Assembly: GCF_004010195.1 (NCBI RefSeq)
Contig: NC_057718.1
Span: 101,550,559 to 101,614,558 of the forward strand
Source: Chiloscyllium plagiosum
Taxonomy: Eukaryota
Length of the DNA: 64,000 nucleotides
Direction of reading: 5' to 3'
The notes beneath the pieces were generated by a model. The model did no database searches and was not told the DNA's origin. It saw only the letters and a program-made list of their open reading frames with translations. Below, one piece after another: positions 1 through 63,779 of this stretch. The first letter of the stretch is position 1; each line of letters begins with the position of its first letter. A program made the translations under genes and the position numbers.

Positions 1-172
1 CTCCTCTAGCTTATCTCTCCACCCTTCCGGCTCTCTGCCTTTATTCCTGATGAAGGGCTTTTGCCCGAAACGTTGATTTTACTGCTCCTCGGATGCTGCC
101 TGAACTGCTGTGCTCTTCCAGCACCACTAATCCAGAATCTGGTTTCCAGCATCTGCAGTCATTGTTTTTACC
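1..172 (+). mobile_element. 3' terminus of a Penelope-like repeat (family H1) with a minimal hammerhead motif; truncated by the window start
   Basis: CTGATGA(47-53)-A-GGGC-TTTT-GCCC-GAAA(67-70)-CG-TT, followed by the tail CTGCTCCTCGGATGCTGCCTGA...CCAGCATCTGCAG shared with 8 other copies in the window. Confidence 0.75.
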
Positions 173-199
173 TCAATCTCTTCTGAACCCTCTCCATCT

Positions 200-520
200 T
201 AATAATATCCTTTCTATAGTTGGAATAGGAATAGAAACCAGTTGCTGTCTGGTTTGCTCAAGCGCATGCGGCTCTAAGAAAGTGTACCAAAAATATGCTG
301 TGAACACACCTTCCAGGCTACCTTTCCACTCTGATTTGTCCAACCTATATGTCAATTAAAATCACCCACAATAGTAACCTTCTCACAAATCCTCATTGTG
401 TCTTCCTGTGATTTCCATCTAGCAGTGTGGTTACTGTTAGCGAGGTGATAAACTGCTCCCACAAGTGAATCCTTTGTTTTATTATTCTTCGTCTTTTGGA
501 AGATGAAAGGGAATTGTACC
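200..520 (-). mobile_element. Degenerate CR1-type LINE ORF2 endonuclease fragment
   Basis: ORF 352..582 contains LVGAVYHLANS...IVGDFN and ORF 173..355 contains FLEPHALEQTR; these resemble the CR1 APE motifs GVVYRPP, GDFN and FLEQxVxEPTR. Confidence 0.7.
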
Positions 521-736
521 ACATTCAGTAACCAGGAATCCAATTTTTTTTTGCCTCTTTGCAAGTTTGTGAGCTGTAACAAAGTATTCTAATAGACAAA
601 CTGTTTCATCCAACTGTCTCACATATAACAGGCTATTTGCTTACAATTGTACATCAAAGGCAACAATTGCATTCCCTATTCAGGGCAGTGAGTGTGAAAT
701 CTGTTGATATCAACTATCAGGTCATCCAGTTACCAT

Positions 737-1074
737 GGAATCCCTACAGTGTGGAAATAGGCCATTTGGCCCAATGAGTCCACACCAATCCTCTGACCAG
801 CATCCCCCATCCTATCCCTATAACCCTGCTTTTTCCTTGGCTAAAGCACCTAACTTACACATCCCTGAACACTATGAGCAACTTAGCAAGGTCAATCCAC
901 CCTAACCTGCACATCTTTGGACTGTGGGAGGAAACTGGAGCACCCGGGCGAAACCCACACAAATATGGGGAGAATGTGCACACTCCACACAGACAGTCAC
1001 CCAAGGGTAGAATTGAACCCGGGTCCCTGGCGCTGTGAGGCAGCAGTTCTAATCACTGAGCCACCGTGCCGCCC
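737..1074 (-). mobile_element. HE1-type SINE, full length
   Basis: Reverse strand starts GGGCGGCACGGTGGCTCAGTG (A box), has GGTTCAATTC (B box) and the central TGTGTGGAGTGTGCACATTCTCCCC, and ends in the LINE-like tail CCACACTGTAGGGATTCC. Confidence 0.9.
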
Positions 1075-1534
1075 GAACGTTTCCTCGATGAAAGCTATTA
1101 GAAGTGATCGCCATCATTTTCTGGCAATACGGAGTTTTCACTGAGGCACTACAGCCTGAAATATTATGATCTTGCCTCAAAGATTGATTGCATAGGTATT
1201 CTGAATCATTATGTAAGAGGAATGGCCAACAAAAATAAGAGCAAGTTTTACTTTTCTTAAATCGATCTTATCTCAGTAATTTACTTCTTAAGTCGTAAAT
1301 TTTAATGGTACCCATGCATGAGCACAGAGCAAAGATCAGAAATGAGAGGAAGAATGCTTCAAGTGTTTATTTAATGGGATTCTGTCCCATTTAAATGTAG
1401 AAGTAATGCAGTGCAGTTTCACCAAAATATTATCTGAGGCATCTGAAGTTTGATTATCAGGAGAGATTACATAAACTCGGCTTGCACTTTCTAGAATATG
1501 AAAGATGAATGGTGGTTTGGCTGGGCTTTCTAAA

Positions 1535-2000: not shown

Positions 2001-3004
2001 ACTTTATGTGACTCCAAGCTAACCAGAACGAGGTTGACTTTTCACTGCCTTCTGAAATAGCTGTTCAAGAACAATTAGGGATGAGCAACAGCTGGTGGCC
2101 TTGTTAGCGACATCCATAAAGCAGTGTTTAGAATTCAAACCGTTATTGAACCAATTACAACGTATATTTATGGGGCACCTTTAACATGTTAAAATGTCCC
2201 AGGATTGCTAAGCACCTATTAACACCCCAGAGATATGATCTGTTGTGTTAGGTATTCAATACGGTTTTCATAAAACCAAGGCCACATGTCTAAAGTGTTT
2301 GTTATTTTCCTCCAGATCTAGGTTATTCTTGTGGAATATATTTCAGCCTGCTATCAATGGGTTGGCTTGTTATTTTAGAATCGATATTGGAGTTTTGTCA
2401 AAATAAAAATTTGATTTTTCATTTGCGCAGTGTTTTCATTCTGCTTTGAAACCCAAGAAATGTAATCAAATGTCATGGATATTTTCTACCCAATTTTTCT
2501 GATTAAATATTGAACAATAAATCTTCAATAAAAATGACCAACTCCTTCAGTGGTATCCATAACAACAATAGCAGAGTTTCCCAGAGGAATAGCTTCAGAT
2601 GATTATACTTTTCATGTCAGCGGCTTGTCTATTATTTAACACCTTTTTCCGAAGTCTGGCAGTCACAGGGAATATGTCCAGCGGAGCGTTGCGATTCTGG
2701 ATTCACTTCTGACACAAAAAAACGTGCAGTTTCACAGTGGGATCAAACCAGTGGAGCAGCTGAATATACGGTTACCCCTCAGTCAAAGAAAATAGAGGTA
2801 GTATCAAAGGATAAGTCATCTGGGACATGTCCTTATGTACAGGATAAAGAGCAACAACCAATAATGTACAGGAGCATAATTACTTCTTCCTGCTAAGAAT
2901 ATGTGCACAGGAAGGGGAGGAGGATTGCAGCTTTGATTTTGTTCATTTAATTTTCTTTTCGAGAGCCCCTCTTCCTGTGTCTCCAGTGGCTGATGATGTC
3001 CTTA

Positions 3005-3090
3005 ACAAAACTTCCTGAGAAACTCTGCAGGTCTGGCAACATCTGTGGAAAGAGAAAACAGAGTTAATGTTTCGAGTGCAGTGACATTTC
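3005..3090 (-). mobile_element. Degenerate family H3 hammerhead-type short repeat
   Basis: GAGAAACTCTGCAGGTCTGGCAACATCTGTGGA...GAGTTAATGTTTCGAG matches the other H3 copies. Confidence 0.6.
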
Positions 3091-3129
3091 CTCATAGTGG
3101 TCCTTTGCTTCTCTATCACACATCGACCA

Positions 3130-3986: not shown

Positions 3987-4559
3987 CAGTAGCGCCTCGA
4001 CATGTGAACGACCCCGTTCTCGAACAACTCGGTTTATTAACAGGATTCTACATAAAATTTTGCTTCAACGTACGTACGAAATTCAAGGTACGAGCGAAGG
4101 TACGAACGCTAAAAGCCCATGTGCGACCACGTGGTTTCATTGTTCTGCTTTGCTACGTGCGCTTTGAACGTAAAAGCTCTCGGGGCCCTGCGTGATCTCA
4201 GTTCGTCTTTGGCACGCGCGCTGTGAACATCGTACGTTGCTACGTCCAAGCATTCTTACGCTTTTTTTTTGTTTTTTGCATTAAATTAGCCCTCATTATG
4301 GCTCCGAAGAAAGTGAAAAGTGGTAGTGATAGTGGTGTTAAGAAGCCTAAACGTATTGCTGTGGAAACGAAGAAGGAAATAATAGCTAAACACGAGAATG
4401 GTGCTCGTGTATCTGATCTGGCTAAGCAGTACGACATGGCGAAACGGATCAATTGGAATTGCATTAATTCAAATGGGAAAAATTGATTCAGTTCGCGAAC
4501 TTTTCGAATCGCGAACCAGGTCTCGGAACGGATTAAGTTGGTAAGTCGAGGCGCTACTA
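3987..4559 (+). mobile_element. Internally deleted Tigger/pogo (Tc1-mariner superfamily) DNA transposon
   Basis: TIRs CAGTAGCGCCTCGAC (3987-4001) and GTCGAGGCGCTACTA (4545-4559, 14/15 match); TA on both sides (3985-86, 4560-61); ATG at 4298 opens MAPKKVKSGSDSGVKKPKRIAVETKKEIIAKHENGARVSDLAKQYDMAK, a CENP-B/psq-type HTH. Confidence 0.9.
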
Positions 4560-5294
4560 TATTTTATTGCAGCGCATTTCTAGTGAAAGTGCAATCATTT
4601 GTACAGCTGCCAAGATTTATTTGCATTGTGGACTGACGAGGCTTGATACTTTGTGCTGGTACTGTGTGTGGTATATAAATCTAGTGGATGGATGAAGGCA
4701 GGGATTTTCTTTTGAGTGAAGCCTGTTCACCAAACTTTAGGGTTTCTGAGCTGTAGACCGGGTTAGGCCTGTCTAGTCTGCAGCAGCTGTGCCTACGCAA
4801 TAGTAGCCACAGGAGTACACAGCTAGCTCAGCACGCTGGCCGATCTGTTTTCAGAGCTATCTGAGAAGGAAGCTGGGTTCTGATCGTCTGCTCATATCTC
4901 TGCCAGATGGGGAGAGATAGCAGGGAGCTTTGGGTGTGGATCAACCCACCCCCCAGTGTACTTGAAACACACGCAAAGTGCACCACTCAACAGCCTCCCG
5001 CTGTCAGTGAGACCCCTGATCATTTCAAAGATCTGGGTGAGGTAGCTGCCTCCGCTAATTAAAACAAGTGACAGTACAGTGGGCCACCTGAGCTAGTTTT
5101 AAAGTCTTTAACGGCCTTGTTGTGTCAGTGCAAGAGCTGCAACCAGGCCTCAGCACTGTGTTATGGCAGCCAGGGTATAACGCCACACCTCCGATCTCCC
5201 CTGGGGTGGTTTGTTCTCTGATGGGTTGCAGTGTGTTTGTCACTGGCTGTCTATCTTTGTTTACAAAAAAAGGCTATTTTGCAGTGATCCCAGT

Positions 5295-5385
5295 GAATCT
5301 CTGGGATGTTATTACACACCTCTGGAACAGGCGAAACTTGTACCTGGGCCTCCCGGCTCCAAGGTAGGGACACTACCACTGTGAT
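5295..5385 (-). mobile_element. tRNA-derived SINE head fragment (family D)
   Basis: Reverse strand CACAGTGGTAGTGTCCCTACC...; similar to the head at 63780-63990. Confidence 0.5.
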
Positions 5386-6110
5386 TTATCAGCTTTGCAC
5401 ACTGTGTCCCAGTCAGTTCAACTGAGCATCTTGCACTGGCATCGGAGCGTCAGTGTGAAAGATCAACGCAGCAATATCCAGCCACATACCATCAAGGAAA
5501 TTGTACTTGCTGTAACCTCATCGCGTCATGGTGTCTGCTCAGTGCTGGAAAAAGAGAAAGCAACATCTTTTGTTTAATCAGTACAGGGCAATCCCTTCTT
5601 TCCGTGACAGTTTAACATGGGATTGGTAATAGTGTCTGCCCTCACTGTCAGTTCAACAACTCTCGGCTTTTGATTTCAGATAGGCAGCTCATATAGCATT
5701 CAGCTCATAATACAACATAATTCCTCTGTATTAAAATGCTGCTTATAATGACAGGGAGAGAGGAGTCTTGGGAGATGCTCAATTCCAAACACTGCCTTTT
5801 TTTGAGAGGAGAGAAGTCTAATCGCACTATCAAATGACTTTGATATTCCTTTTAAAGCGACTGTTTCAGAGGTGGGGTTAAGCTCAGCTCTGAGCCACTT
5901 CAGTGACATTTGAATAAAGTCCCTCTGTGACTGTAATTAACACTATTGCATCTCCTCCCACCTGGACATTGGGATTTCATGTTTTGCGGCTTTATTGTGA
6001 TCCTCTGTCCCTAAGAACCTGGGCCTCTCCACTCACTATGGAGGTATTCTGGGAGTGCATTTAGCAGCCGAATGTAGAGAGAGAGTAGTGGGTGTGCATG
6101 GCTGTCCTGG

Positions 6111-6136
6111 ACACACACACACACACACACACGCAC
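6111..6136. repeat. (CA)n microsatellite
   Basis: Directly visible. Confidence 0.95.
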
Positions 6137-6179
6137 AGAGATAGATGATTCTGGTGGTTTTGCCAAGGGCTTGCTTACA

Positions 6180-6395
6180 ATGAGAAAGTTGTTACAGAGC
6201 AGGAGGCCATTCACCCCTCTGTACCTGCACCGGTTCTATCCCTTAGTCCCAACCTCCTATCTTTCTCCCATATCCCTGCATGCTATTTCTATCCAAATTG
6301 CCATCCGATGTCCCTCTTGAATGCCTCAATTGAACCTGCCTCCACCACATTTCCAGGCAGTACACACCCTAACTACTCGCTATGTGAACATGTTT
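6180..6395 (-). mobile_element. CR1-type LINE 3' fragment
   Basis: AGGAGGCCATTC...GAATGCCTCAATTGAACCTGCCTCCACCAC pattern. Confidence 0.65.
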
Positions 6396-6399
6396 CATC

Positions 6400-6497
6400 A
6401 CACTTCACCTGAAGAAGGAAAAATGTTCCAAAAGCTTGTGATTTCAAATAAACCTGTTGGACTATAGCCTGGTGTTGTATGACTTCTGACTTTGTCT
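6400..6497 (+). mobile_element. Degenerate family H2 hammerhead-type short repeat
   Basis: CACCTGAAGAAGGA...TCCAAAAGCTTGTGATTTCAAATAAACCTGTTGGACTATAGCCTGGTGTTG matches 18218-18300. Confidence 0.7.
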
Positions 6498-6569
6498 GCT
6501 GCTGTAGTGTCAGTTTTGATTAGGTAGCAGCAACACTTTTTCAATTAAAGACAAATATTGTGAATTCTT

Positions 6570-7030
6570 TTTTTTTCACAAGATGTAAGGGTTTCTGGCA
6601 AGGCCCTCCTTAAGGTCTTTGGGAAGGTGGGGGTGAGCTGCCTTCTTGAATCACTGCAGTCCGTGTGCTGTAGGCTGACCCACAATGCCCCTTAGGGAGG
6701 GAATTCCAGGATTGTGACCCAACGACATTGAAAGAACGGCGATATATTTCCAAGTCGGGACGGTGAGTGGCTTGGAAGGTAACTTGCAGGATATGGTGTT
6801 CCCCATATATCTGCTGAGTGTTGTTGGAGCTGCACTCACCCAAGCAAATGGGGAATATTCCATCAGACTCCTGACTCATGCCATGTAAATAGTGCACAGG
6901 CCTTGGGGAGTCAAGGGGTGAGTAATTTGCTATAGAATTCCTAGCCTCTGACCTGCTCTGTGTTTATATGGCTGGTCCATTTCAAGTATTGATCAGTGAT
7001 AACCTCAGGATGTTGACAGCAGGGGATTCA
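6570..7030 (-). mobile_element. CR1-group LINE family B 3' fragment
   Basis: GGTGAGCTGCCTTCTTGAA...GATATATTTCCAAGTCGGGA shared with 8135-8370, 52030-52445 and 57790-57975. Confidence 0.7.
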
Positions 7031-7034
7031 CCTT

Positions 7035-7390
7035 GGGGGTGGCACAGTGGCTCAGTGGTAAGCGCTGCTGCCTCGCAGCGCCAGGGACCTGGGTTTGATT
7101 CCAGCCTCACTCATTTATCTCTGTAGAGTTTGCACATTCTCCCCATGTCTGTGTGGGTTTCCTCCGGGTGCCCCAGTTTCCTCCCACACTCCAAAGATGT
7201 GCAGGTTAGGGTGAAATGGCCATGCTACATTGCCCATAGTGTTCAGGGATGTGTAGGGTAGGTGCATTAATCAGGGTTAAATGTGGGGCGGGGGAGTGGG
7301 TATGGGGTGTTGCTCTTCGGAGGGTCGGTGTGCACTTGTTGGGCCGAAGGGCCTGTTTCCACACTGTAGGGATTCTGTGACTCCATGATT
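7035..7390 (+). mobile_element. HE1-type SINE, full length
   Basis: Head GGCACAGTGGCTCAGTGG, HE1 core, tail GGGCCGAAGGGCCTGTTTCCACACTGTAGGGATTC. Confidence 0.9.
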
Positions 7391-7589
7391 AGCTTTTTGT
7401 CATGGTCTAACGCACAGAAACAATGAGTCACCTATACTTCTTTGTAAATTAGAAAAATAATACGATCCTTAATTACTGTTGACTGTAGTTTTTTGTTCTT
7501 TAAAAGGAGTAATTGTACAGGCGACGTTGTGTTGTACTTCTGTAACATTAAAGGAGACCAATTAGCCCCCTATGTCTTCATGCTCCTAA

Positions 7590-7869
7590 CTCTCACTAAG
7601 TTTTGTTTACCCATTCCCCTGAGCTCGCTGGGACCCGGTTTGGCAACAACTTGCTTTGGGATAAATTCTCATCCTTGTTATCAAATCCCTCTACCCTGGC
7701 TATTCCATTTACCTCTGTAATCGCCTCTGGCCCGACAAAGCTTCCAAAATCTCCTCTGAATCTAGCCTCTTGCACATCTTCAATTTAATCACTGTACCAT
7801 TGTTAGCCAACACCTTCTGCTACCAGGGGTCAAAGCTCTAGAATTCTCTGTCTGTTCTCTTGCTCTCGT

Positions 7870-7906
<37 letters not shown>

Positions 7907-8035
7907 TCCTTTGAAATGTTCCTCAAACCTTACATTTTTTTAAACCAAGCTTCAAATTTCCCTTTGGGTGACTCAGTCAGGTTGTGTCTGACAAGAGCCC
8001 AAGGATGAGCCTTGGCAATGTTTTATGACATTATA
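7590..8035 (+). mobile_element. L2-type LINE 3' fragment containing a (CT)n tract (about 7875-7901)
   Basis: Similarity to the other L2-like pieces; microsatellite directly visible. Confidence 0.45.
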
Positions 8036-8134
8036 GACAACCAGCCATGGTCACATTAAATGGTGGAGTGGGTTGGATGGGCTGAATTGCCTTCTCCAGC
8101 TTCTAATTCCTATGGCCCTGTCTCTGTTCTTCTC

Positions 8135-8370
8135 ATTCATTCATGAGGTCTAAACATCACAATAAAGGCCAATATTTATCGCTCATTTCTAATTATCCTC
8201 AAGAAGGTGGTAGTAATGAGCCGCCTTCTTGTAGTCCATGTGGTGCAGATGCACTGACAATGCTGTGCGGAAGAGAATTCCTGGATTTTGACTCAGTGAC
8301 AGTGAAGGAACAGCGATATATTTCCAAGTCGGGATGGTACGTGCAGTTTGAAGAGGAACTTGAGATGTGA
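8135..8370 (-). mobile_element. LINE family B 3' end
   Basis: Starts with the (TCAT)n tail, then GAAGGTGGTAGTAATGAGCCGCCTTCTT...TATATTTCCAAGTCGGGATGG. Confidence 0.7.
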
Positions 8371-8444
8371 GGGTACCTAACCCTAACCCTATCCTTCCAA
8401 GGGCACAGCTCTGGGAGATGCTTGGCAAGTTGCTGCAAACTGAG

Positions 8445-8810
8445 GAATTCCGAGATGATAAAAGGTTTGGATAAAACATACGTGGAGTGGATGCTTCCTC
8501 TTGTGGGGCATTCTAGGACGAGAGGTCGTTGTCTTAGGGTGAGGGGTAGTAAATTTAAAACAGAGCTGAGGGGAAACTACTTCCCCCAAAGGGTTGTGAA
8601 TCTGTGGCATTCCCTACCCCAAAGTGCAGGGGATGCTGGGACAGTGAGTAAAGTTAAGGAAGAGTTAGACAGATTTTCAATTGGTGATGGGTTGAATGGA
8701 TTTAGAGAGAAGGCAGGAAAATGTGGGTAAGAGCATATCAGCCATGATCGAATGGCAGAGCTGCCTCAATGGGCCAAATGGCCTAATTCTGCTCCTATAT
8801 GAACTTATAA
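8445..8810 (+). mobile_element. CR1-type LINE 3' fragment
   Basis: ORF 8422..8730 has SRTRG..LRVRGSKFKTELRGNYFPQRVVNLWHSLP, a CR1 C-terminal motif. Confidence 0.85.
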
Positions 8811-8849
8811 ACTATTGCATGGTACACACTGCACCAGTTGGAGAATCAA

Positions 8850-10032
8850 TCATCTTCATTCAAAATTCCAGGGATGAAAGGGCTGTTCAAACGAGGAACA
8901 GATGAATAACTTGGGCTTATACTCGCTGGAGTTCATAAGAATTAAGGAGGATCTGATTGAGGTATATAAAATGATGATGTGGATTGATAAAGTGGATGTT
9001 GATTGGATATTCCCCCTTGTGTGACAGTCTAGAACAAGAGGTCATAGATATAGAGTGAAAGGAGGATGGGGAGAAGCTGTTCCATTCACAGAGTTGTGAA
9101 TCTGTGGAACTCACTGCTCCAGGGTGCAGCAGAGGCCAAATCAACCAACAAATTCAAGAAAGAAATAGACAGGATTTACACAATTAATGGTCAGGCCTTG
9201 GGTAGTGTTGCAGAACAGAGAGACTGAGGAGGTCAGGTACATAATTCTTTGAAATTTGCATCACAGGGTGGTTTGAAGGTGTTTAGCATGGTTGCTTTCA
9301 ATGCTAAGTCCTTTGAGTACAGGAGTTGTGACGTGATTTTGAGGTTGTACAGGATGTTAGTGAGGCCTCTTCTAGAGTACTGTGTCCAGTTCTGGTCACC
9401 CCGTTATAGGAAGGATGTTATTAAGTTGGAGAGGGTTCATAAAAGATTTACCAGGACGTTGCCAGGAATGGAGGGTTTGAGTTGTAAGGACAGGCTGGGA
9501 CTTTTTTCACTGGAGTGTAGGAGGTTGTGGGTGACCTGATAGAGGTTTATAAAATCATGAGGGGTATAGAGAAGGTGAATAGCAAAGGTCTTTTCTTGAA
9601 GTTAGGGGACTTCAAAACGAGAGGGCATATCTTTAAGGTGAGAGAAGAAAGACTTAAAAAGAACATGAGGGGCAACCTTTTTCCACAGAGAGTGGTTCAT
9701 ATGTGGAATGAACTTCCAAAGTAAGTGGTGGATACAACTGCAAGTTACAATGTTTAAAAGGCATTTGGATAAGGACATACATGAACAAGAAATGTTTGAG
9801 GGGATTTGGGCCAAAGTTTAGTTTGGGAACATGGTCAGGATGGAGTAGTTGGATCAAAGGGTCTGTTTCCATGCTGGAGGAGCTCTAGGTATTTCTGATA
9901 AGGTGTGGGATTACGGGCAGGAGAGTGGAGTTGAAACCAGAAAAAGATCAGCCATGATCAAGTTAAACAGCAGAGCGAGCTCAGTGGGCTGAATTGCCTA
10001 CTCCCGCTCCTAATCCCTATGTTCCTGTGTTC
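8850..10032 (+). mobile_element. CR1-type LINE 3' fragment split by a HER1-type LINE fragment
   Basis: Outer element stops at AGAAATAGACAGG (about 9173) and resumes at about 9888 with its own 3' tail. Confidence 0.7.
9176..9885 (+). mobile_element. HER1/CR1-type LINE 3' fragment (inner insertion)
   Basis: ORFs contain LYRMLVRPLLEYCVQFWSP, LERVHKRFTR and QRVVHMWNELP; tail GGGTCTGTTTCCATGCTG resembles the HE1 tail. Confidence 0.9.
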
Positions 10033-11384: not shown

Positions 11385-13140
11385 ATGAAGAACAAAATAC
11401 AGGAACAGGCCCTTCGGCCCTCCAACCCTGTGCCGACACATTTTGCTCTTCCATACTGAAACTGTCTTCCCTTACAGGATCTGTATCCCGCTATTCCCTT
11501 CCTATTCCTGTATTTATCCAGGTGCTACTTGAATGCTGCTGTTGTGTCTGCCTCCACCACCTCCTCTGGCAGCATGTTCCACACACACCCCACCCTTTGT
11601 GTGAAAATCCTACCTTGCACATCTTTTTTAAACATCCCCCCTCACACCTTGAACCGGTATCCCCTGTTAATTGACCCCACACACCCTATGAAAAGCTTCC
11701 TACTTTCCACTCTATCCATGCCATTCATAATCTTATAAACTTTTATCAGGTTGCCCCTCAACCTCCTGCGTTCCAGTGAAAACAAACCCAGCCTGTCCAA
11801 CCTTCCTTCATGGCTTAAAATTCCCCCATACTGGGCACCATCCTGGTAAATCTTTTCTGTACCCTCTTCAAAGCATCCAAATCCTTCTGGTAGTGTGGTG
11901 ACCAGAACGGTACGCAATATTCCAAGTGTGGCCTAACTAAAGTTCTATAAAGCTGCAGCATAACCTGTTTATCCTTGTACTCAATGTCCATTCCAATGAA
12001 GGTAAGCATGCCATAGGCCTTTTTTAAACTACCTTAACTACCTGTGCTGCCACCTTCAGTGATCTGTAGGCCTGCACACCCAGATCCCTCTGCATATCAA
12101 TACTCCTAAGGGTTCTGACATTCACTGTCTAATTTCCACCTGCACTTGACCTTCCGAAATGCATCACCTCGCATTTGTCCGGATTAAACTCCATCTGCCA
12201 TTGTTCTGTCCATGCCTCCAAATGCTCTATGTCCAGCTGTATCCTCTGACAATCGTCCTCACTATCTGCAACTCCACCAATCTTTGTACCATCCGCAAGC
12301 TTACTAATTAGACCAGCTACGTTTTCCTCCAAATCATTTATGTGGTCAACGAACAGCCGAGGTCTCAGCATTGATCCCTGTGGTACATCACTAGACACAA
12401 CCTTCCATTCCGAAAGGTATCCTTCCCCCACTACCCTCAGCCTCCTATGACTAAGCCAGTTCTGTATCCACCTTGCCAGGTCACCCCTGAAACTGACTTC
12501 TCTTTTTGCACCAGTCTGCCATGAAGGACCTTGTTAAAGACTTTACTGAAGTCCATTTGGACAACATCAACCGATTTTCCCTCAACAAACATCCTCAAAA
12601 AACATGATCAAGTTAGTGAGGCATGACCTCCCCCGCTCAAAACCAAGCCGTCTATTCGCTAATTAGTCCACTTGCTTCTAAATGCATACAGACCTTGTCC
12701 CTGAGAATCTTTCCAATAATTTCCCTCCCACTGATGTGAAGCTCACAGGCCTGTAATTACCTGGATTATCCCTGCTACCCTTCTTAAACAATGGGACAAC
12801 ATTGTCTATTCTCCAGTCCTCTGGCATCTCACCAGTGGCCAAAGAGGATACAAAGATGTCTGTCAATGGTCCAACAATTTGTTCCCTTTCCTCCCTCAAT
12901 ATTCAGGAATAGATCCCATCAGGACCCGAGGACTTATACACCTTAATACTTTTTAAGATGCACAGCACCTCTTCCCTTTTAATAGCAACTTGGATTAGAA
13001 ACTCAACATTCCCGTCCCTGAGATCATCCTCCACCAATTCTTTCTCTTTGGTGAATACCGTCACAGGGTATTTGATTAGGACCTTGGGATGTTGATGACT
13101 GATCCATACGGAGATGGGTTTGGTTGGGTCTACAGCCAAA
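11385..13140 (-). mobile_element. CR1-type LINE, RT region to 3' end, with frameshifts and deletions
   Basis: ORF pieces KSSGPDGIY, PEDWRIDNVVPLFKKGSRDNPGNYRPVS, VPQGSMLRP, SKLADGTK, WQMEFNPDKC and VRPHLEYC are collinear. Confidence 0.95.
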
Positions 13141-13198: not shown

Positions 13199-13280
13199 GG
13201 AAGGGTTTTTGCCCGAAACGTTGATTTTCCTGCTCCTTGGATGCTGCCTGACTGGCTGTGCTTTTCCAGCAACACACTCA
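13199..13280 (+). mobile_element. Partial family H1 hammerhead-type short repeat
   Basis: GAAGGGTTTTTGCCCGAAACGTTGATTTTCCTGCTCC...GTGCTTTTCCAGC. Confidence 0.75.
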
Positions 13281-13740
13281 CTTTTGCCTCAAAGATGTCT
13301 GTACCTAGCCTGAGGCCGCACGGATGGAAATGTAGCACCCAGCTCATTCCACCCATTCTTTTTCACGTTTTTGTGTGATCACATTGCTACTGTAGTAAGA
13401 GAGCAATTAGAATGTATGAATTTCCCCAGGCCATTCACCCCCAGTGCTGATTAAATGTCTTTCCTTTGCAGTATTTATTTATTTCAGATTCTAATCTTGG
13501 CACAACGTTAATTAAACAGTCTGGTTTCAGTTAGAGCCACTTGCTAGTTCAGGGTAAAAAGGTTGTAAATCCCTTTGTGGTTTGCAATCAATTACCTGCA
13601 GCATGCCACAACAGATTGCTGTAATTTTGCTCCCACTTTCATCATGTCTGTGTGAGAAAAAAACACATGGTTGTGCATTTTGATTTTTTTTCTGTACATC
13701 GCAGTTTATTATTTTGGTTCCAGCATTGCTTCCTTCCTTC

Positions 13741-14084
13741 TGGCATGGTGGCTCTTTGGTTAGCACTGCTGCCTCACAGCGCCAAGGACCTGGGTTCGAT
13801 TCCAGCCTCGGGTGACTGACTGTATGGAGTTTGCACATTCTCCCCATGTCTGTGTGGGTTTCCTCCAGTTGCTCCAGTTTCCCCCCACAGTCCAAAGATG
13901 TTAGGATGGGTTGACCATGCTATATTGCTCATAGGGTCCAGGGTTGTGTGCCTTAGGTGGACTGGCCATGGGAAATGCAGGATTATGGGGATGGACTGGG
14001 TCTGGGTGGAATACTCTTTGGATGGTCAGTGCAGACTCAATGGGCTGAATGGCCTGCTTCCACACTTATCGGATGCTCATGATT
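13741..14084 (+). mobile_element. HE1-type SINE
   Basis: A box, B box (GGTTCGATTCC) and HE1 core. Confidence 0.9.
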
Positions 14085-14491
14085 TGGAGATGCCAGTGTT
14101 GGACTGGGGTGTACAAAGTTAAAAATCATAATTAGGAGGTGGCAGTGCCTTCAATTGAACAGAGTTAGACTCCACCAGGTTCTGTCTCTGAATCCTTCCA
14201 CATAATTGGAAGCACTAGCTTTCGGAGCGCTGCTCCTTCATCAGGTGGTTGTGCAGCATAAGATTGTAAGACACAGAATTTATAATAAAAGTTTACAGTA
14301 TGTCATTCTAACAGATGAGAGACTTAACAAACAATCCAGGCCTTTTCCAATATATAATTTCAGTTACAACACACTGTAAATTTTTGCTATAAATTCTTAG
14401 TCTTACAATCTCATACTCCACAACCACCTCCAAAAGCTAATGGTTCCAAATAAACCTTTTGGTAACCTGGTGTTGTGTGATTTTTTTAACT
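14085..14491. mobile_element. Family H2 Penelope-like fold-back element with an intact hammerhead core (14213-14247, minus strand)
   Basis: Inverted arms; flanking imperfect direct repeat TTATCGGATGCTCATGATT (14066-14084) / TTATCGGATACCATGATT (14492-14509). Confidence 0.75.
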
Positions 14492-14964
14492 TTATCGGAT
14501 ACCATGATTCCTGAGCTGGTGGGCTGTGGCCACCGTCATAATTAGGAGGTGGCAGTGCCTTCAATTGAACAGAGTTAGACTCCACCAGGTTCTGTCTCTG
14601 AATCCTTCCACAATGCAGAGGTCAATAGCCCCCATCACAAAGAGCTTTAGCCAGTCAAAGACATGTTGTAAGAGTTGTCCTGATCTACATCAGGGCAAAG
14701 ATTGAAAATTGTTCAGTCATGGGGTCCAGAACGCTACTGTCACAAGTAACCACCTTCAACAGTAAAGCAAATTGCTTCTCATTTTAGTCTTCCCAACCCC
14801 AAATCCAAATCCAGCATTGGACTCCTGTTGAATATTGGTTGTATTTTGAGGAGAGATCAAGTAAAATGGGTCCATGCTCGCTGGTGTGAATGAGAGGTGA
14901 TCTCATTGAAGTCTATAAAGTTTATAAAAGGATTGAAAAGGCAGGTAACCAAAGAAAAATCCCA

Positions 14965-15168
14965 AAACAAAAACTAAACAAAGAGCTGTGGATGCTGGAG
15001 ATCAGAAACAAAAACCAATTTCTGGAGAAGCTCAGCAGGTCTGGCAGCATCTCTGCAGAGAAAGCAGGGTTAAGGGGTCACTGGACTCAAACATTAACTC
15101 TGCTTTCTCTCTGCACAAAGGCTGCCAAGCCTGCTGAGTTTCTCCAGCAATTTCTGTTCTACTTTTTG
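14965..15168. mobile_element. Family H3 fold-back short element
   Basis: CTGGAGAAGCTCAGCAGG...GTTAA followed by its reverse complement TTAAC...CCTGCTGAGTTTCTCCAG. Confidence 0.75.
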
Positions 15169-16927: not shown

Positions 16928-17120
16928 GAGTCGAAAAGTGTGGCGCTCGAAAAGCACAGCAGGTCAGGCAGCATCCCGAGGAGCAGGAGAGTCGACATTT
17001 CGGGCATTCCTAATGAAGGGCTTATGCCTGAAACATTGACTCGCCTGCTCCTCGGATGCTGCCTGACCTGCGCCACCCTTTTCGACTCTGACTCTCCAGC
17101 ATCTGCCGTCCTCACTTTCT
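16928..17120. mobile_element. Family H1 fold-back short element
   Basis: GCAGGTCAGGCAGCATCCCGAGGAGCAGG and the inverted CCTGCTCCTCGGATGCTGCCTGACCTGC around a decayed hammerhead centre. Confidence 0.8.
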
Positions 17121-17171
17121 GCTAGTCCTGTATTGCAGCATGGTCTCCCTCACACTCAGAATGGGCCCTTG

Positions 17172-52514: not shown

Positions 52515-53775
52515 AAAGCATAGAACATCACAGCGCTGTACAGGCCCTTCGGCCTTCGATGTTGCGCCGACCTATGAAATTAATCTGATGCCTATGTAAC
52601 CTACACCATTCCATTATTATTCATATGTATGTCTAATGCCCATTTTAATGCCCTTAACATCGGCGAGTCTGCTACTCTTGCAGGCAGGCCGTTCCACACC
52701 CCTACTATTCTCTGGGTAAAGAAACTACCCCTGATATCTGTCCTAAATCTATCACCCCTCAATTTAAAGCTTTGTCCCTCGTGTTAGCCTTCACCATCTG
52801 AGGAAAAAGGCTCTCACTGTCCACCCTATCTAACCCTCTGATTATCTTATACGTCTCGATTATATCACCTGTCAACTTTCTTCTCTCCAACAAAAACAGC
52901 CTCAGTTCCCTCAGCCTTTCCTCGTAAGATCTTTCTTCCATACCAGGCAACATCCTAGTAAATCTCCTCTGAACCCTTTCCAAAGCTTCCACATCCTTTC
53001 TATACTGCGGTGACCAGAACTGTAGGCAACACTCCAGGTGCGGCCTTACCAGTGTCTTGTACAACTGAAGCATGACCTCATGGCTCCGAAACTCAATCCC
53101 TCTACTAATAAACACCAATGCACCATATGCCTTCTTAACACCCATATCAACCTGGTTGGCAACTTTCAGAGATTTATGCACCTGGACACCGAGATCTCGC
53201 TGCTCATCTGCACTGCCAAAACATTTACCATGAGCCCAGTACTCTGCATTCCTGTTACTTCTTATGAAGTGAACTACCGCACACTTTTCCATATTAAACT
53301 CAAGTTGCTACTTCTCAGCCCAGCTCTACATCTTACCTATGATCCTCTGTAACCCACAACATCCTTCAGCACTATCCACAACTCTGCCTACCTTAGTGTC
53401 ACCCACAAACTTACCAACCCAACCTTCTACGCACACCCTTCCAGATCATTTATAAAAATGACAAACAGCAGTGGCCCCAAAACAGATCCTTGCAGCACAC
53501 CACTGGTAACTGAGCTCCAAGATGAATATTTCCCATCAACCACCATCCTCTGTCTTCTTTCAGCTAGCCAATTTCTGATCAAAACTGCTAAATCACCTTC
53601 AATCCCGAAACTCCGTATTTTGTGCAATAGCCTAACGTGTAGAACCTTATCAAACGCTTTATTGAAGTCCATATACACCACATTAACCACTTTACCTTCA
53701 TCCACCTGTTTTGTCACCTTCTCAAAGAACTCAATAAGGTTAATGAGACACGACCTACCCTTCAAAAAACCATGT
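52515..53775 (-). mobile_element. CR1-type LINE, RT domain to 3' end
   Basis: ORFs 53427..53873 ([42 protein letters not shown]) and 52759..53292 (LYKTLVRPHLE, LERVQRRFTRM). Confidence 0.95.
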
Positions 53776-54094
53776 TTACTCTTAGACTTTTCAGAATCTG
53801 CCGTTGCTGCCTGTTGTTGAAGGTGACAAAAACGGTTTGCTCCTGGTTGACTCATATCTTTGATGTCCTCCATGGCAACCTAGATTTACCCATTTGCAGA
53901 GCAGTTCCAAGAAGCTGTGACTATTATGTCGACTGACAGCTATGATTGCAAGAAAGGATCAAGCCTGGTGGAAGCATGGAAAGAAAATCCAGGAAAATAG
54001 AATCTCAATAAATAGCAGCAGAGGGTTGTGAAGGTTTGTAGCTCAGGTTGAGATTTAGGATGTAGGTTTGCTCGCTGAGCTGTAGGTTTGATAT

Positions 54095-54134
54095 CCAGAC
54101 GTTTCGTTACCTGGCTAGGTAACATCATCAGTGG
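54095..54134 (-). ncRNA. Minimal type I hammerhead ribozyme motif in the Penelope terminal repeat
   Basis: Exact reverse complement of 56125-56164. Confidence 0.8.
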
Positions 54135-55110
54135 CGACCTCCAAGTGAAGGGAAGCTGTTGTCTCCTGCTTTCTATTTATACCTTTTGCCTGGATGGGGT
54201 TCCTGGGGTTTGTGGTGATGTCATTTCCTGTTCGTTTTCTGAGGGGTTGATAGATGGCATCTAGGTCTATGTTTTGTTTATGGCGTTGTGGTTGGAGTGT
54301 CAGGCCTCTAGGAATTCTCTGGCATACCTTTGCTTAGCCTGTCCCAGGATAGATGTGTTGTCCCAGTCGAAATGGTGGCTTTTTTCATCCATGTGTAGGG
54401 CTACGGGGGAGAGAGGGTTGTGTCTTTTTGTGGCTAACTGGTGTTCGTGTATCCTGGTGGCTAACTTTCTTCCTGTTTGTCCTACATAGTGTTTGTGGCC
54501 GTCCTTGCAAGGAATTTTGTAGATGACGTTGGTTTTGTCCATGGGATGTACTGGGTCTTTTAAGTTTGTTAGATTTTGTTTGAGAGTGTTGGTGGGTTTG
54601 TGTGCTACTAGGATTCCGAGGGGTCTTAGTAGTCTGGCTGTCATTTCTGAAACTTCTTTGATGTATGATAAGGTGGTTAGGGTTTCTGGCTGTGTTTGGT
54701 CTGCTTGTCGTGGTTTGTTCTTGAGGAATCTGCGGACTGTTTTTTGAGTATCCGTTCTTCTTGAATAGGTTGTATAGTGGTTCTCCTCTGTTTTGCGTAG
54801 TTCGTCTGTGCTGCAGTATGTGGTGGCTTGTTGGAATAGTGTTCTGATACAGCTTCGTTTGTGTGTGTTAGGATGGTTGCTGGTGTAGTTAAGTATTTGG
54901 TCAGTGTTTGTCGGTTTTCTGTATATGCAGGTTTTTAGTTCTCCATTGTCCTTTCTTTCGACTATGACGTCGGTTTCTTCCTCCTTGGTGAACTTTATGC
55001 CTGTGAGGGTGTTGTTGATGATGTTAAATGTCTTTTCTATCTTGTTTCGTTTTGTGATGACAAAGGTGTCATCTACATAGTGGACCCAGATTTTTGGTTT
55101 GATGGTTGGT

Positions 55111-55249
55111 NNNNNNNNNNNNNNNNNNNNNNNNNNNNNNNNNNNNNNNNNNNNNNNNNNNNNNNNNNNNNNNNNNNNNNNNNNNNNNNNNNNNNNNNNN
55201 NNNNNNNNNNNNNNNNNNNNNNNNNNNNNNNNNNNNNNNNNNNNNNNNN
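55111..55249. other. Assembly gap (139 N) inside the Penelope RT
   Basis: N run. Confidence 1.
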
Positions 55250-56124
55250 GATGGTCTCTTCTAAAAGTGTGGTAAGTGTTTCCTTTGCCAGGTTGATGTT
55301 GATGGGGGTGAACAGTGCTGTTACGTCGAATGAGATCATTGCTTCGTCTTCCTCTATTTTGGTGTTTTTGATGATTTTTAGGAATTCCTGGGTGGAGTGG
55401 ATGGAGTGCTGTGACTCTTCTACTAGGTATTTCTGTCTTGTGTGTAGTTCTTTGGCCAGTCTGTAAGTTGGTGTTCCGGGTAGTGCGACTATAGGTCTGA
55501 GGGGGGCTCCTGGTTTATGGATTTTTGGTAGTCCGTAGAATCGTGGTGTGTTGGTCCCGTTGGGTTTCATTTTCTGGAATTCTGTCTTGTTTAATTGTCC
55601 GGAATTGTGTAATTTTGTTTCCTAGTTGTGGGGTCGGGTCTAGAGCCACCTGTTGGTAGGTGTTGGTGTCTGCGAGTAGTGCATTGGCTTTCTCTATGTA
55701 GTCCCTTCTGTTCAGGATGACAGTGAGCCAACCTTTGTCTGCAGGGTCTTGCAAGGACTGCCACAAACACTACGTAGGACAAACAGGAAAAAGTTAGCCA
55801 CCAGGATACACGAATGCCAGCTAACCACAAAAAGACACGACCCTCTCTCCCTCGTAGCCCTACACATGGATGAAAAAAGCCACCATTTCGACTGGGACAA
55901 CACATCTATCCTGGGACAGGCTAAGCAAAGGCATGCCAGAGAATTCCTAGAGGCTTGGCACTCCAACCACAACGCCATAAACAAACACATAGACCTAGAT
56001 GCCATCTATCAACCCCTCAGAAAATGAACAGGAAATGACATCACCACAAACCCCAGGAACCCCATCCAGGAGAAAGATATAAATAGAAAGCAGGAGACAA
56101 CAGCTTCGCTTCACTTGGAGGTCG

Positions 56125-56164
56125 CCACTGATGATGTTACCTAGCCAGGTAACGAAACGTCTGG
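56125..56164 (+). ncRNA. Minimal type I hammerhead ribozyme motif in the inverted Penelope terminal repeat
   Basis: CCA-CTGATGA-T-GTTACCT-AGCC-AGGTAAC-GAAA-CG-TC-TGG: stem I CCA/TGG, 7-bp stem II, palindromic ACGT in place of stem III. Confidence 0.8.
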
Positions 56165-56393
56165 ATATCAAACCTACAGCTCAGCGAGCAAACCTACATC
56201 CTAAATAGCAGCAGACTTGCAAATTCTGGGTTTTACTAAAGTGGGTCTAAATGTTCTCCAGAAAGGACCAGCTGGAACACACCCATACACAACCCACATT
56301 AAAACATTCCACAACTACCTAAAACGTGTGGTCAGCCCTTGCTCTGTGACTGTCCTTTAGTCCAACAACCCTCAGTGCTCCCCCAGTATCAAA

Positions 56394-57032: not shown

Positions 57033-57252
57033 GAGAACATGAGGACTGCAGATGCTGGAGATCAAAGTCGAGAGTGTGGCACTGGAAAAGCACAGCGGAT
57101 CAGGCAGCACCCGAGGAGCAGGAGAGTCGATGTTTCGAGCATAAGCCCTTCATCAGGAATGAGCCTGATTAAGGACTTATGCCTGAAACATCGATTCTCC
57201 TACTCCTCAGATGCTATCTAACCTGCTGTACTTTTCTAGCGCCACACTCTCG
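57033..57252. mobile_element. Family H1 fold-back element with a 16-bp target-site duplication (1 mismatch)
   Basis: AGCCCTATCTCTGCAG (57017-57032) / AGCCCTAACTCTGCAG (57253-57268); two opposed hammerhead-like motifs at the centre. Confidence 0.85.
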
Positions 57253-57554
57253 AGCCCTAACTCTGCAGCCTCCTCCAGCCAAGTGACCCTCCACAAACTC
57301 TGCCCTTCCCGCTCCAATTCTGAATGGGACTCGATGGGACACAGGATAGAGGCAGGAGAGGTTTGGTTCAGCTGTAGGTGGCTACTGTCCAGAACTTGCT
57401 TTATTCCTCCACATAACTATTCCTACATGGCTCCCTCAAAATTCCTAACCGATGCCAACTTTTGAACATTTTTGCATTGTGTCTCTCTGTGCAACATCCC
57501 TGCCCCTCCACCCCCATCCCACCCAACCTTTCCCTGGTCCCAGACAGAGTGGAA

Positions 57555-57655
57555 ACTGTGCAAACTACTGCCGATGTTGGAAATCTGAAATAAAAAGAGA
57601 GCAAGCTGGAAACAGTCAGCAGGTCTGGCAGAACCTGTGGAGACAGAGAGAGAAA
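57555..57655 (-). mobile_element. Family H3 short repeat, partial
   Basis: GCTGGAAACAGTCAGCAGGTCTGGCAG. Confidence 0.55.
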
Positions 57656-59672: not shown

Positions 59673-59676
59673 AGAC

Positions 59677-60215
59677 TCAGAGTCATAGAGATGTACAGCA
59701 CGGAAACAGACCCTTCGGTCCAACTCGTCCATGCCAACCAAATATCTGAAACTAATCTAGTCTCATTTGCCAGCATTTGGCCTATATCCCTCTGAACCCT
59801 TCCTGTTCATATACCCATCCAGATGCCTTTCAAATGTTGTCATTGTGGCAGCTCATTCCATACACAGATCACCCTCTGTGTGAAAACGTTGCCCCTTACA
59901 TCCCTTTTAAATCTTTTCCCTCTCACCTCAAACCTATGCCCTCTAGTTTTGGACTCCCTACCCTGGGGAAAAGACCTGGTGTATTCACCCTATCCGTGTC
60001 CCTCATGATTTTATAAACCTCTGTAAGGTCACCCCTCAGCCTCCGACACTTCAGGGGAAAAAGCCCCACTATTCAGCCTCTCCCGATAGCTCAAATCCTC
60101 CAACCCTGGCAACATCCTTGTAAATCTTTTCTGAACCCTTTTCACAATATCTTTCCTATAGCAGGGAGACCATAATTGAATGTAGTATTCCAAAAGTGGC
60201 CTAACCAACGTCCTG
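59677..60215 (-). mobile_element. HER1-type LINE 3' fragment
   Basis: ORF 60029..60247 has LVRPLLEYYIQLWSP...RVQKRFTRMLPGLEDLSYRERL. Confidence 0.9.
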
Positions 60216-60829
60216 TTTTTCTGCAGAGGAGTCTCAGCTACAACCACTCATAGAATTGACAGTAAATAGTATAGATTTTCAGCATTTTTGCCTTGTATGT
60301 ACCCCTGTGGAATCCCTCTGAGCCTCGGTGTAGTTATCACAGTCAGAGAATACAGGGAGGCGAGTTAAATCTCTGTTTTTAGCTCATTCAGCAGACAGGA
60401 ACAGCGCATAAACCTCAAGAATAATGGGTGGAAATTTTTTTTCTACCATTTATACACCTCAAACAATCAATTCTCAAGCTAGTTTCCAAACAAATCCATT
60501 TTAATAGTTGAAAATTAATGTGACCCCAGGCATGAACTAAAATATTAAAGTGCATAATAAAATTCAAAATATAGTGCAGCATATAAATATGAACATCTGT
60601 GATTTTAAAGGATATTCTAAAAATTTTGTTGTTTTATGTACTGACTAGTCCATTACTTCATCTGACCCACTCTATTTTCATTGTTCTTGGCGAGGAAGCA
60701 GGTTCTAAGTGCATGGTGAGGGTCATCAGGGGTCAAATGTCAGAGCCCAGGTTGGTTTGCAGCAGGTGAGTCATGTGACTGAGCTCAGCTGCAGAGGAAT
60801 CACCGCTGGGTTCACCAGAGAAGTACAAA

Positions 60830-61148
60830 TGAAGCCATTTGGCCCATCGAGTTGGCACTGACTCTCCAAAGAGTATCCCACTCAGACCCAGGCCAAGCCC
60901 AGCTCCATATCCCTGTAACTTCACATTTCCCATGGCTAACCCACACATCCTTGGACACTATAGGCAATTTCCCATGGCCAATCCACCTTAATCTGGACTG
61001 TGGGAGGAAACCAGAGCACCCAGAGGAAACCCACGCAGACACGGGGAGAATGTGCAAAGTCCACACAGACAGTCGCCTGAGGCTGGAATCGAACCTGGGT
61101 CCCTGGTGCTGTGAGGCAGCAGTGCTAACCACTGAGCCACTGTGCTGC
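60830..61148 (-). mobile_element. HE1-type SINE
   Basis: Reverse head GCAGCACAGTGGCTCAGTGGTTAGC and B box GGTTCGATTCC. Confidence 0.9.
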
Positions 61149-63779
61149 TCAAATGGTTCATGGTTTGGGCAAGGCTCCAAGATGAACAGGAGCCCAATCC
61201 CTGCGAAGAGAGACTGACAGGTGAGAGTAGGACAAGAGCACGGCCTGGATTTCAGTAGGGTGCACTGTCAGAGGATGGGAGGGGGTGTGGATTGGGAGTC
61301 ACAACCCTATTTGCCCTTTCTCCACCTCTAACTGGATTTGCAAAGCACCGTTTGGAAACCACCACCTTCAACCTTTCAAGAAAGGTGCCTTGCAGAGTCT
61401 TAAGACTGGTGCTGCTGTTGGTATATACTTTAGAGACTAGCAATGGGGGAACTGTGGAGGTGTTGCAATCAAACCTCAAGCAATATGTCCAATCAGGGCA
61501 ACTGTAGACCAGTACATTTTGATTTTGCTTCTTTCTCAGACAGAACGGTGCTGATGAACTCGTGTTGACTAGATGTGTGTTCCCATGGCCTAGAAGACTT
61601 AGTGGCAATCTCATCAAGCGATTAAAATTCTCCAGGGGTTTGTCAGGCAACAACTCCTGGGCAGATGTTTCATCCTCAACCAAACATGCAGAGAAACCTG
61701 GCAGGTCAGGCAGCCTCTGTGGAGAGAGAGGAAACGGAGTTAACCTTTCTTCCTGACATTTCTTTCTGCCTGGAGAATCTGTCTCAGTTTCGAGATAAGG
61801 GAGCTGAGATAAACAGCAGTTTCTTCCCTCAGGAGTTTGGACCTTTCCAACTCTCTCCCCCCAGGGGTGCTGATTTTCAAGACTGACGTTAATGGACCTT
61901 TGTGTACTTGGGTGTGGGAACAGTGCAGGAAGGTAGCTGAGGTATAAGATCAGCCAATTTTCTGTTTGATTCCTCTCCAAATGATATGACAGAATTAAGC
62001 TTCACACTGTAAGTAGGAAGCTACATTTCACTATTGCCAGTCTGTTATAGTTTAACAGTGTGAGCATATGCACCATATGTCATATTGCACTCATTATTGG
62101 GGATGAAGTCAGACGAGCAATTTTTCACTCTTGTCTAATGCTCATACCCTGGTTTTAATCTACCGTGTAATTAATAATTGAAAACCGAGGAGATTGGTAG
62201 CTGGTGGATATATTAAAATGGGATAATCAGCCTTTTATTCCTCCTGTAAGACAGTGGAGAAACAACAGCTTCTCTTTGACAAGTTTCCCGTTGACAGAAG
62301 TGTTTTGTTTCTCACTGCTGGGAACCCTGACAATGTGACCCTGGAGTGAACTGCACTCCTGAAGAAGATCACTTTGATGAGTTCATGCTAATGAGTATTT
62401 TTGGGTATCAGTATTAAGCAATCACTGTTGTCTGTAGCCTCGGTTCACACAAACTGAACTTGTGCTAGTGACACCTTTCTCATAGCTGCTCTTGATTGAC
62501 TCCTTTGGAAGTAACAGATCGGATGTGAAATTACATATTAAATATTAATAGTGTTGCTGTGGGCTTAATACATTCCTTGTTTCTTCGTCGAATTTGCATG
62601 TACATTGCCTCTTCTTTCATTTTATCATTCATCATTCGACCACATACATTCATCTTGCTCCACCCTGTCTCTGGATTGCTGAATACAGGATTATCTCTGT
62701 TGTGTCAGCTCCCCTTCACTGTAAAGTATGGAAAATGAGACCCTTTCAATATTCTGAACATGCATCACTTGTATCTCCCTTCAAGACAGTGGCAAGGAAG
62801 ACAAATGGTGGCTGTGCCCACTAAGTCTGTACTTGCTGAGAAACACTGAACAACCTCATTCCACTGTTTCTGTGGAGCTCATTTCATTCTTGAGTTTATC
62901 ATTTGTCACAGCTCACACCCCAAGTTGCGAGTCGGAGCAGAAATAAATATTCTGAAGGATGGATGCCTACAGGACTCACTTCAACTAATTCCTGTATCTG
63001 TTGTAATCCCCACAGACTCTACAGTGTTTGACTGAGCTGGGGCTGATTATCTGATTATTAGTTTATTTTGTTTAACTAGGGAATATTATTTGCTGTCAGA
63101 ACCAAAAATAAAATGAAGCTGTGTCTGATTAATGATATCAGGTGACACGATTATTTGAGCTGGAGATCTGTCTCGGAATATTTCAAATGAGGTTGTTCTG
63201 CAGCTCTACAATGCTTAAGACTGAATAAAAATACAGGGAAGCTCATAAATCTGTTGTAAAAGGAAATTTAAAATTGTGTGTTTCTTAGTGATGTATTATG
63301 TTCAAGGTTTTGGTGTGCCAGAGTATTTGCGTATACTATTTGCATTACAGAACTTACTAGTAATTATTTATAATTTATCCAGAGGATCGCTTTTTTGCCT
63401 CTGGGTAATCTGTTGTAATCCTCAGTGAATGAAACCAATGGGGAACAGAGCGGGGTGCTTACAACATAGAAACAGACCATTCCACTGAACAAACCCATTA
63501 ACGTTCCATATGAGCTTCCTCTAACACTTCACTGTCTAACCCGAGCAACATATCTGTTCTATTCATTTCTCCTTTATTTGTTTGTCATGGTTTATCTTCA
63601 ATGCATCTCGATGCCCGTGAAGTAAAGAGTACCACATTTGGACTATTATCAAGTTTCCTCTTGATTTCTAATCCCCTTCGCGATCATTTGTTTATGTCTG
63701 TTTCCAGCCTCTCTTCTCAGAGCTTCTTGACGTGAGGAGGGGATTGACCACAAGAACAGCCCGTGCAAGAGCCTGTGGA

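Follow-up and report, generated by a model that had tools for sequence, protein, structure and literature searches.

Short hammerhead-bearing repeats in a shark genome: probable terminal repeats of Penelope-like elements with a sharp 5' boundary

The window analysed here is a stretch of 64,000 nucleotides from the shark Chiloscyllium plagiosum (contig NC_057718.1, positions 101,550,559 to 101,614,558 of the forward strand). It holds short repeats of three families, H1, H2 and H3, built around a minimal hammerhead ribozyme motif. A preliminary description, made from the letters of the window, listed 21 places for them, and we find repeats at every one: 28 arms, making up 21 insertions. Seven of these 21 are head-to-head inverted pairs, on which that description was silent. 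We will argue that the three families are likely the terminal repeats (pLTRs) of Penelope-like elements (PLEs) and that their short copies, here called stubs, are probably complementary DNAs (cDNAs) that ran off the 5' end of the element RNA. Offsets within copies, including those of walls and TATA boxes, are counted from C3 of CUGANGA as position 0; TSD stands for target-site duplication. The insertions are as follows.

1-173, plus strand: tailed H1 pLTR arm whose motif at 47-74 is intact; it forms the right end of an insertion that is longer and runs into an assembly gap before the window
3004-3097, minus strand: H3 single stub, core decayed, tailless
6400-6492, plus strand: H2 single stub, start about -7, stem II decayed
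13199-13284, plus strand: H1 single stub, start within the core (+5), 14-nt TSD with one mismatch
14079-14496: H2 inverted pair, arms longer, motif at 14244 (minus strand) intact, gapped direct repeat of about 19 nt
14965-15165: H3 inverted pair, only the left arm tailed
16928-17122: H1 inverted pair, only the right arm tailed, right-arm start -5
18098-18300: H2 inverted pair
18457-18560, minus strand: H3 single stub, start about -3
19038-19172, minus strand: H1 single stub with tail, start about -5, 9-11-nt TSD, splits another repeat
20290-20421, plus strand: tailed H3 single stub that splits another repeat, 14-nt TSD without mismatch
20908-21153: H3 inverted pair, starts at -2 to -4 on both arms, one arm tailed
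22789-22883, minus strand: H1 single stub, start -5, 11-14-nt TSD, splits another repeat
25562-25668, minus strand: H3 single stub, core decayed
29836-29932, minus strand: H1 single stub, start about -5, splits another repeat without TSD
30680-30888: H1 inverted pair, only the right arm tailed, 12-nt TSD with one mismatch
41046-41148, minus strand: H3 single stub
42525-42607, minus strand: H1 single stub, start +3
57033-57280: H1 inverted pair, intact motif at 57156 (minus strand)
57555-57650, minus strand: H3 partial copy without hammerhead
61690-61750, minus strand: H3 fragment without core

The hammerhead motif ascribed to the better-preserved copies is complete (CUGANGA-stem II-GAAA-NN-UH) at 47 on the plus strand and at 14244 and 57156 on the minus strand, that is, in just three of 27 tabulated arms. 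For H3, whose motif had been reconstructed from decayed copies, the window offers no intact copy, and yet the reconstructed pattern has 278 exact matches in the genome against none for the reversed control. Direct repeats of 9-19 bp had been claimed around six copies; five of the 21 insertions reach a score of at least 9, compared with 2 of 420 mismatched flank pairs, and the sixth (14079-14496, about 19 nt with one gap) was seen by eye. In the first 80 random stretches of the genome, the same threshold was reached by 55 of 179 insertions against 28 of 3000 controls, with lengths of 9-19. Insertion into other repeats was also confirmed, since four of 20 tested H1-H3 insertions split a pre-existing one (19038, 20290, 22789, 29836). 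The copy at position 1 is not a discrete unit, because it adjoins a gap of 1,456 N with an inverted H1 arm on the far side. Within the window there are no head-to-tail tandem hammerhead units.

The motif itself is abundant in the genome. Exact matches number 16,316 for the H1a pattern, 42,567 for H1c and 4,283 for H2, and an H3 subfamily with a compensatory U3-A8 core change and a self-complementary 4-bp helix I (L172-L191) is represented by 904 exact copies of one 35-mer; the reversed control of each gave 0. A minimal-hammerhead descriptor that asks for the core plus 4 bp in stem II and 2 bp in helix I, and so presupposes the first pairs, found 63 matches in 1,162,860 bases, whereas a reversed control and three shuffled ones had none; by extrapolation, about 190,000 intact motifs are predicted. 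Stem II had been said to differ between the families while staying paired. This holds for both helices: helix I pair 1 is C-G, U-A or A-U and pair 2 is U-A, A-U or C-G, while pair 4 of stem II is C-G, G-C or U-A. Pair 15.2-16.2 is CG, GC or a CpG-decay product in 61 of the 63 motifs, and in H1 the third pair of helix I is a U-U mismatch. A search of the window with Rfam models at E<=5 brought up no hammerhead, its hits being miRNA models on fold-backs, far below gathering scores. When five sequences were folded as monomers, stem II formed in all, and the z-scores (0.02 to -2.1) add no support beyond the motif. In the published work available to us, single motifs were inactive and dimers weak in cleavage (PMC4209133), and the hammerhead of PAc, a Poseidon element of Anolis, was cleaved only with protein (PMC11167929).

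Of the two origins that had been offered for the repeats, the ends of PLEs is supported, as H1, H2 and H3 each run upstream into GIY-YIG frames elsewhere in the genome. H1 is unbroken from such a frame through a 3' untranslated region (UTR) of about 200 nt into the hammerhead (L020 and others), and one locus (L282) has the N-terminus, reverse transcriptase (RT), a CX4CX2C linker and GIY-YIG, with RT and GIY-YIG as Pfam matches. The H1 tail continues into the start of the open reading frame (ORF) in 151 exact junction copies; therefore the H1 repeat is a pLTR. The partial-tandem arrangement, with a repeat before and after the ORF, is established for H1 only. H2 is linked to a GIY-YIG end 390-710 nt upstream through a CA-rich UTR (L061, L052, L035), H3 over more than 800 colinear nucleotides (L084, L357, L087, L287, L290), and the U3-A8 subfamily in L288, which also provides a partial RT for H3; no RT was seen for H2. 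Among named proteins, the best matches are uncharacterised ones of carpet sharks. A zinc-finger linker, CX2-5CxxC, lies between RT and endonuclease (EN) in H1 (L282) and H3 (L084, L288) and is degenerate in an H2-type frame (L096); the available text of PMC8557442 gives it as a trait of Neptune and Nematis. All three families have 3' ends at two positions about 35 nt apart, tailless and tailed, and show the optional 30-40-bp tail, adjacent inverted copy and TSD of EN+ PLEs. Judged by these sequence features, H1-H3 are likely the pLTRs of autonomous PLEs of the Neptune clade. The kind of element is known; the shark families are new. We also observe that in the H1 ORF the N-terminal region is separated from RT by a long stretch of low complexity, rich in Thr, Pro and Ala (L282:4853-6043, minus strand).

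The window contains a fourth hammerhead family, H4, overlooked in the preliminary description, which lacks the zinc-finger linker.

54023-56201: 5'-truncated Penelope/Poseidon-type element, RT and GIY-YIG pieces on the minus strand, short inverted copy on the plus strand, 139 N inside
54102-54131, minus strand: intact H4 hammerhead motif
56128-56157, plus strand: intact H4 hammerhead motif
54009-54022 and 56202-56215: 14-nt direct repeat of H4

Its inverted arms are 95-97% alike, only the left one is tailed and stem II has 7 bp; it is a young Poseidon-type element. The H4 35-mer has 2,280 exact matches in the genome. Two more hammerhead families were noticed: H5, which resembles H1 and H3, and a second subfamily of Poseidon, in which stem II and helix I covary (L103, L130, L151; L118, L141, L355).

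The shapes of copies were compared in 120 stretches of 10 kb, spaced evenly over C2-C6 and C9 (1,162,860 bases in all), anchored solely on sequence 3' of the hammerhead cut site. This sample has 369 arms in 298 insertions, or 256 per Mb, which extrapolates to about 0.9 million insertions if the rest of the genome is alike. There are 173 single copies and 66 pairs; the insertions excluded are 12 that lie at edges, another 12 that adjoin gaps, 33 that are partly inverted and 2 complex ones. Among the 151 single H1-H3 copies, 74 start at -12 to +12, 4 at -37 to -13, 3 at -62 to -38, 26 at +13 to +37 and 11 beyond +37, while 33 are long. By eye, three of the 74 are long as well, which leaves 71 near the core and 36 long. 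The mode for H1 and H3 together is -4 (9 copies), flanked by -5 (8) and -3 (7), and 44 of the 61 H1-H3 pairs reach -12 to +3. The profile is thus a wall with a tail downstream of it, as run-off from an RNA end predicts. An earlier count of solo copies (47 of 66 for H1) was dropped, as a reference without its long arm had inflated it. Plotting copy lengths had been proposed as a way to separate a discrete unit, with a sharp mode at the hammerhead, from truncation, with copies continuing into the ORF. Both are seen at once, the long ORF-reaching copies being a minority, and therefore "discrete units" describes the 5' boundary and not an independent class of element.

The fold-back pairs follow an equally strict rule. 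In the 61 H1-H3 pairs the tail is on exactly one arm in 56, on neither in 5 and on both in none (p=3e-12 against 0.5), and 67 of the 151 single copies are tailed. One-sided tails are described in PMC8557442 and PMC3846280. The sharp wall and the one-tail rule alike are real features of these copies. The count would fit two priming events, one at each of the two start sites known for PAc, on two nicked strands.

What could produce such a wall? Long copies carry a TATA box (H2, H3) or TTATCT (H1) 29-36 nt upstream of it. In H3, TATAAA lies 29 nt before A(-4), and in the U3-A8 subfamily 31 nt; H2 has TATAAAT at -40. By the usual rule, a TATA box stands about 30 nt upstream of a transcription start. 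The commonest RNA-read junctions fall exactly at A(-4), next to many different flanks (96 reads, agreement 0.37; the run is labelled as another species). A template cut by the ribozyme was considered as the main source and rejected, since 2 of 79 H1 single copies begin at +28/+29; a small bump at the cut site among inverted arms can be microhomology.

The following scheme may be put together. The Poseidon protein makes a nick in each strand of the target and starts cDNA at two internal sites of the RNA, which lie one tail length apart (PMC11167929). The upstream pLTR of the shark elements would act as a TATA promoter, with the mRNA beginning at the first base of helix I. Priming on the 5' pLTR copy would give a short run-off cDNA that integrates with a 9-19-nt TSD; retroviral strong-stop DNA is the obvious comparison. 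If both nicked strands are primed, one per site, the two cDNAs could join head-to-head into a fold-back with one tail, whereas priming on the 3' pLTR copy would yield long, variably truncated copies. Since copies keep the whole hammerhead, the template was likely uncleaved RNA. Stubs lack the TATA box and would hence be transcriptionally dead. We put the probability at roughly 0.6 that the 90-130-nt stubs are dead-end cDNAs of this kind, primed at two internal sites on RNAs of elements whose pLTRs are H1-H3 and run off their 5' end.

Several points weigh against this scheme. H1 has no canonical TATA box, only TTATCT at -35 to -37, and Penelope of Drosophila virilis is driven from an internal promoter that has no TATA (PMC2377424). 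H4 has TATAAAT at -50 and no wall: handled in the same way, its ends form a continuum, 20 of 30 lying at -92 or beyond and 5 between -21 and +11, with 2 near TATA+30. H2, in which a transcription start and the first base of helix I should be told apart, gives a mixed picture: -7 is reached or passed by 15 of 43 ends, compared with 23 of 150 (p=0.008), but the mode lies at -3 and the count wrongly includes some long copies. The youngest subfamily, H1a, is less sharp and intermediate (9 of 30 at -12 to +13, 13 of 30 at -23 or beyond). Poly(A) single-cell RNA reads, about 2 in 100 of which were read, run through into the flanks in 93-96% of cases and show no pile-up of starts or ends, so that they give a transcription start no support and do not bear on cleavage or circles; no circular-RNA back-joints are listed among them. 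The biochemistry behind the model comes from a Poseidon protein and not from a Neptune one. Finally, the wall is also the first base of helix I. An extra G derived from the cap is not evident by eye, uncounted, at TSD-defined 5' ends.

The coincidence with helix I leads to a different view of the same Penelope origin, in which it is not transcription start that makes the wall, but either the fold of the hammerhead or a processing of the RNA at helix I (release of RT, a template switch or a cut resembling a splice acceptor). In H1, H3 and the U3-A8 subfamily the wall is the first base of a 4-bp helix I, the commonest H2 end is at -3, a pyrimidine tract followed by AG lies directly upstream in H3, and helix I marks the end of an intron in D. 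virilis (PMC4209133). Nevertheless, a structural block should stop RT on the 3' side of the fold, at +20 to +31, where few ends are found, and H4 has no wall despite its stronger 7-bp stem II. As to splicing, the AG is still present in most short U3-A8 copies, which have no upstream exon in common, and H1 and H2 have no AG at that site. We therefore regard a wall made by fold or processing as unlikely.

Ordinary random 5' truncation, with the mode an alignment artefact of the conserved hammerhead, is a poorer candidate again. The artefact does exist: before references were added, it gave five long copies of the divergent Poseidon subfamily false ends at -2 and put several long H1 copies in the wrong place. 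H1a, too, is nearer to a continuum. After correction, though, adjacent 25-nt bins hold 71 and 4 ends, the flanks upstream of the wall are mutually unrelated by eye, TSDs adjoin the wall in several copies, and fold-back junctions and read junctions fall there too. We consider this explanation improbable and largely refuted already.

Some observations touch on a self-propagating, non-autonomous class derived from pLTRs and mobilised in trans, whether similar to retrozymes, as the preliminary description had proposed, or to short interspersed elements (SINEs). One locus (L090/L091, G000:C4:54039857-54040066) has a head-to-tail H3 dimer of a 177-bp unit with an inverted arm. Others are mini-tandems, in which a pLTR is followed by a piece of the ORF start, mostly of about 60-110 nt, after which the sequence jumps to the 3' UTR and runs on to a second pLTR; the junctions differ from copy to copy. 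The mini-tandem loci are listed here.

Mini-tandems: L192, L193, L202, L203, L212, L213, L216, L217, L219, L220, L221

With two hammerheads about 300-400 nt apart, mini-tandems could be the raw material of retrozymes. An H1 tree of 139 arms (90 short, 49 long) over 90 shared columns, hence of low resolution, has 35 label changes between short and long against 39.4 after shuffling (48 of 500 shuffles are as low); its starred branches force at least 19 changes, and four identical sets span short and long copies. Sharp unit boundaries, TSDs, a very high copy number, the few dimers and mini-tandems and an internal priming that would let a read-through transcript restore the same 3' end are what such a class would have, but we hold it very improbable, the least probable of the alternatives, because short and long copies interleave on the H1 tree with no short-only lineage, long ORF-linked copies occur in every sampled subfamily, 369 arms include a single adjacent same-strand pair, helix III is minimal and not canonical, and the stubs have no upstream TATA.

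As for the surroundings, a SINE family of tRNA type is abundant in the window (7039-7380, 13740-14081, 21509-21737, 32518-32865, 40400-40749, 44894-45164 and others) and presumably resembles the shark HE1 SINE; ARAGORN found 0 genes there. Fragments of long interspersed element (LINE) reverse transcriptase at 12132-12533 and 52762-53879 (minus strand) are, we take it, of CR1 type. Stubs are often nested within other Penelope-like copies or LINE fragments (L004/L032, L067, L046, L148).

How do these families compare with known systems? The insertion units of EN+ PLEs, Neptune and Penelope/Poseidon, share with them the pLTR, heavy 5' truncation, the adjacent inverted copy, a 30-40-bp tail that is often one-ended, TSDs (8-10 bp in rotifers) and solo pLTRs, and a rotifer pLTR has a putative TATA and initiator (PMC8557442; PMC3846280). 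The truncation described there is variable; a fixed wall at the hammerhead, stubs as the main product and a count of tail asymmetry were not found in the available text of these papers, and the density seen here is about 256 insertions per Mb. The minimal hammerheads of metazoan PLEs (PMC4209133) likewise lack helix III beyond a palindromic 15.2-16.2 pair and have an extra base before stem II, a G10.1-C11.1 pair and a short helix I; they too are mostly single motifs from truncated PLEs, with close opposite-strand pairs and a U3-A8 core variant. Stem II has 4-5 bp in H1-H3 as opposed to 7-8 in Schistosoma, from which the U3-A8 variant was previously reported; in the shark, one 35-mer of this variant is present in 904 exact copies. 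The extrapolated number of motifs compares with 4,000-9,000 in coelacanth and Xenopus, with the proviso that the descriptors differ, and sharks are not named in the accessible part of that work.

PAc (PMC11167929) has two internal RT start sites that equal the tail ends, nicks and extends both strands, and has its hammerhead upstream of the start sites with uncleaved RNA as the main template. Its ORF starts inside the hammerhead, whereas that of H1 starts about 180 nt downstream; a genomic 5' wall or a run-off class of stubs is not described in the text available. Non-LTR retrozymes (PMC7229834; bioRxiv 10.64898/2026.07.22.740005) are also non-coding and pLTR-related, with a type I hammerhead and long TSDs, and are known in one chondrichthyan genome. 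They are, however, tandem repeats of 150-450 bp with a hammerhead in each unit and circular RNA, while the copies here are single or inverted and share their subfamilies with autonomous elements, and so fall outside the retrozymes as these two sources, in the parts available, define them. A full-text literature search, beyond whose reach lay subscription papers, supplements, Repbase and Dfam, returned no description of shark PLE hammerheads or of a 5' wall at the hammerhead.

Since the type of element and its hammerhead were already known, the new retrozyme-like class that had been proposed does not stand. The value of these families is mechanistic and concerns how PLEs build their tandem and inverted ends and what the hammerhead does. 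From the fixed wall and the strictness of the one-tail rule follow two sharp predictions, for which an in vitro assay already exists, and with about one insertion per 4 kb the genome is a large natural library of minimal hammerhead variants. We give even odds to the fuller proposition that the mRNA of shark Neptune elements starts from a TATA promoter exactly at the hammerhead, and that its commonest product is an integrated strong-stop cDNA, either single or as a two-primer fold-back with one tail. If this is true, the stubs, several hundred thousand in number, would be a record of where transcription starts and of a priming cycle that is dimeric and uses two sites; the ribozyme, for its part, would be placed where its cleavage removes a capped leader of about 31 nt.

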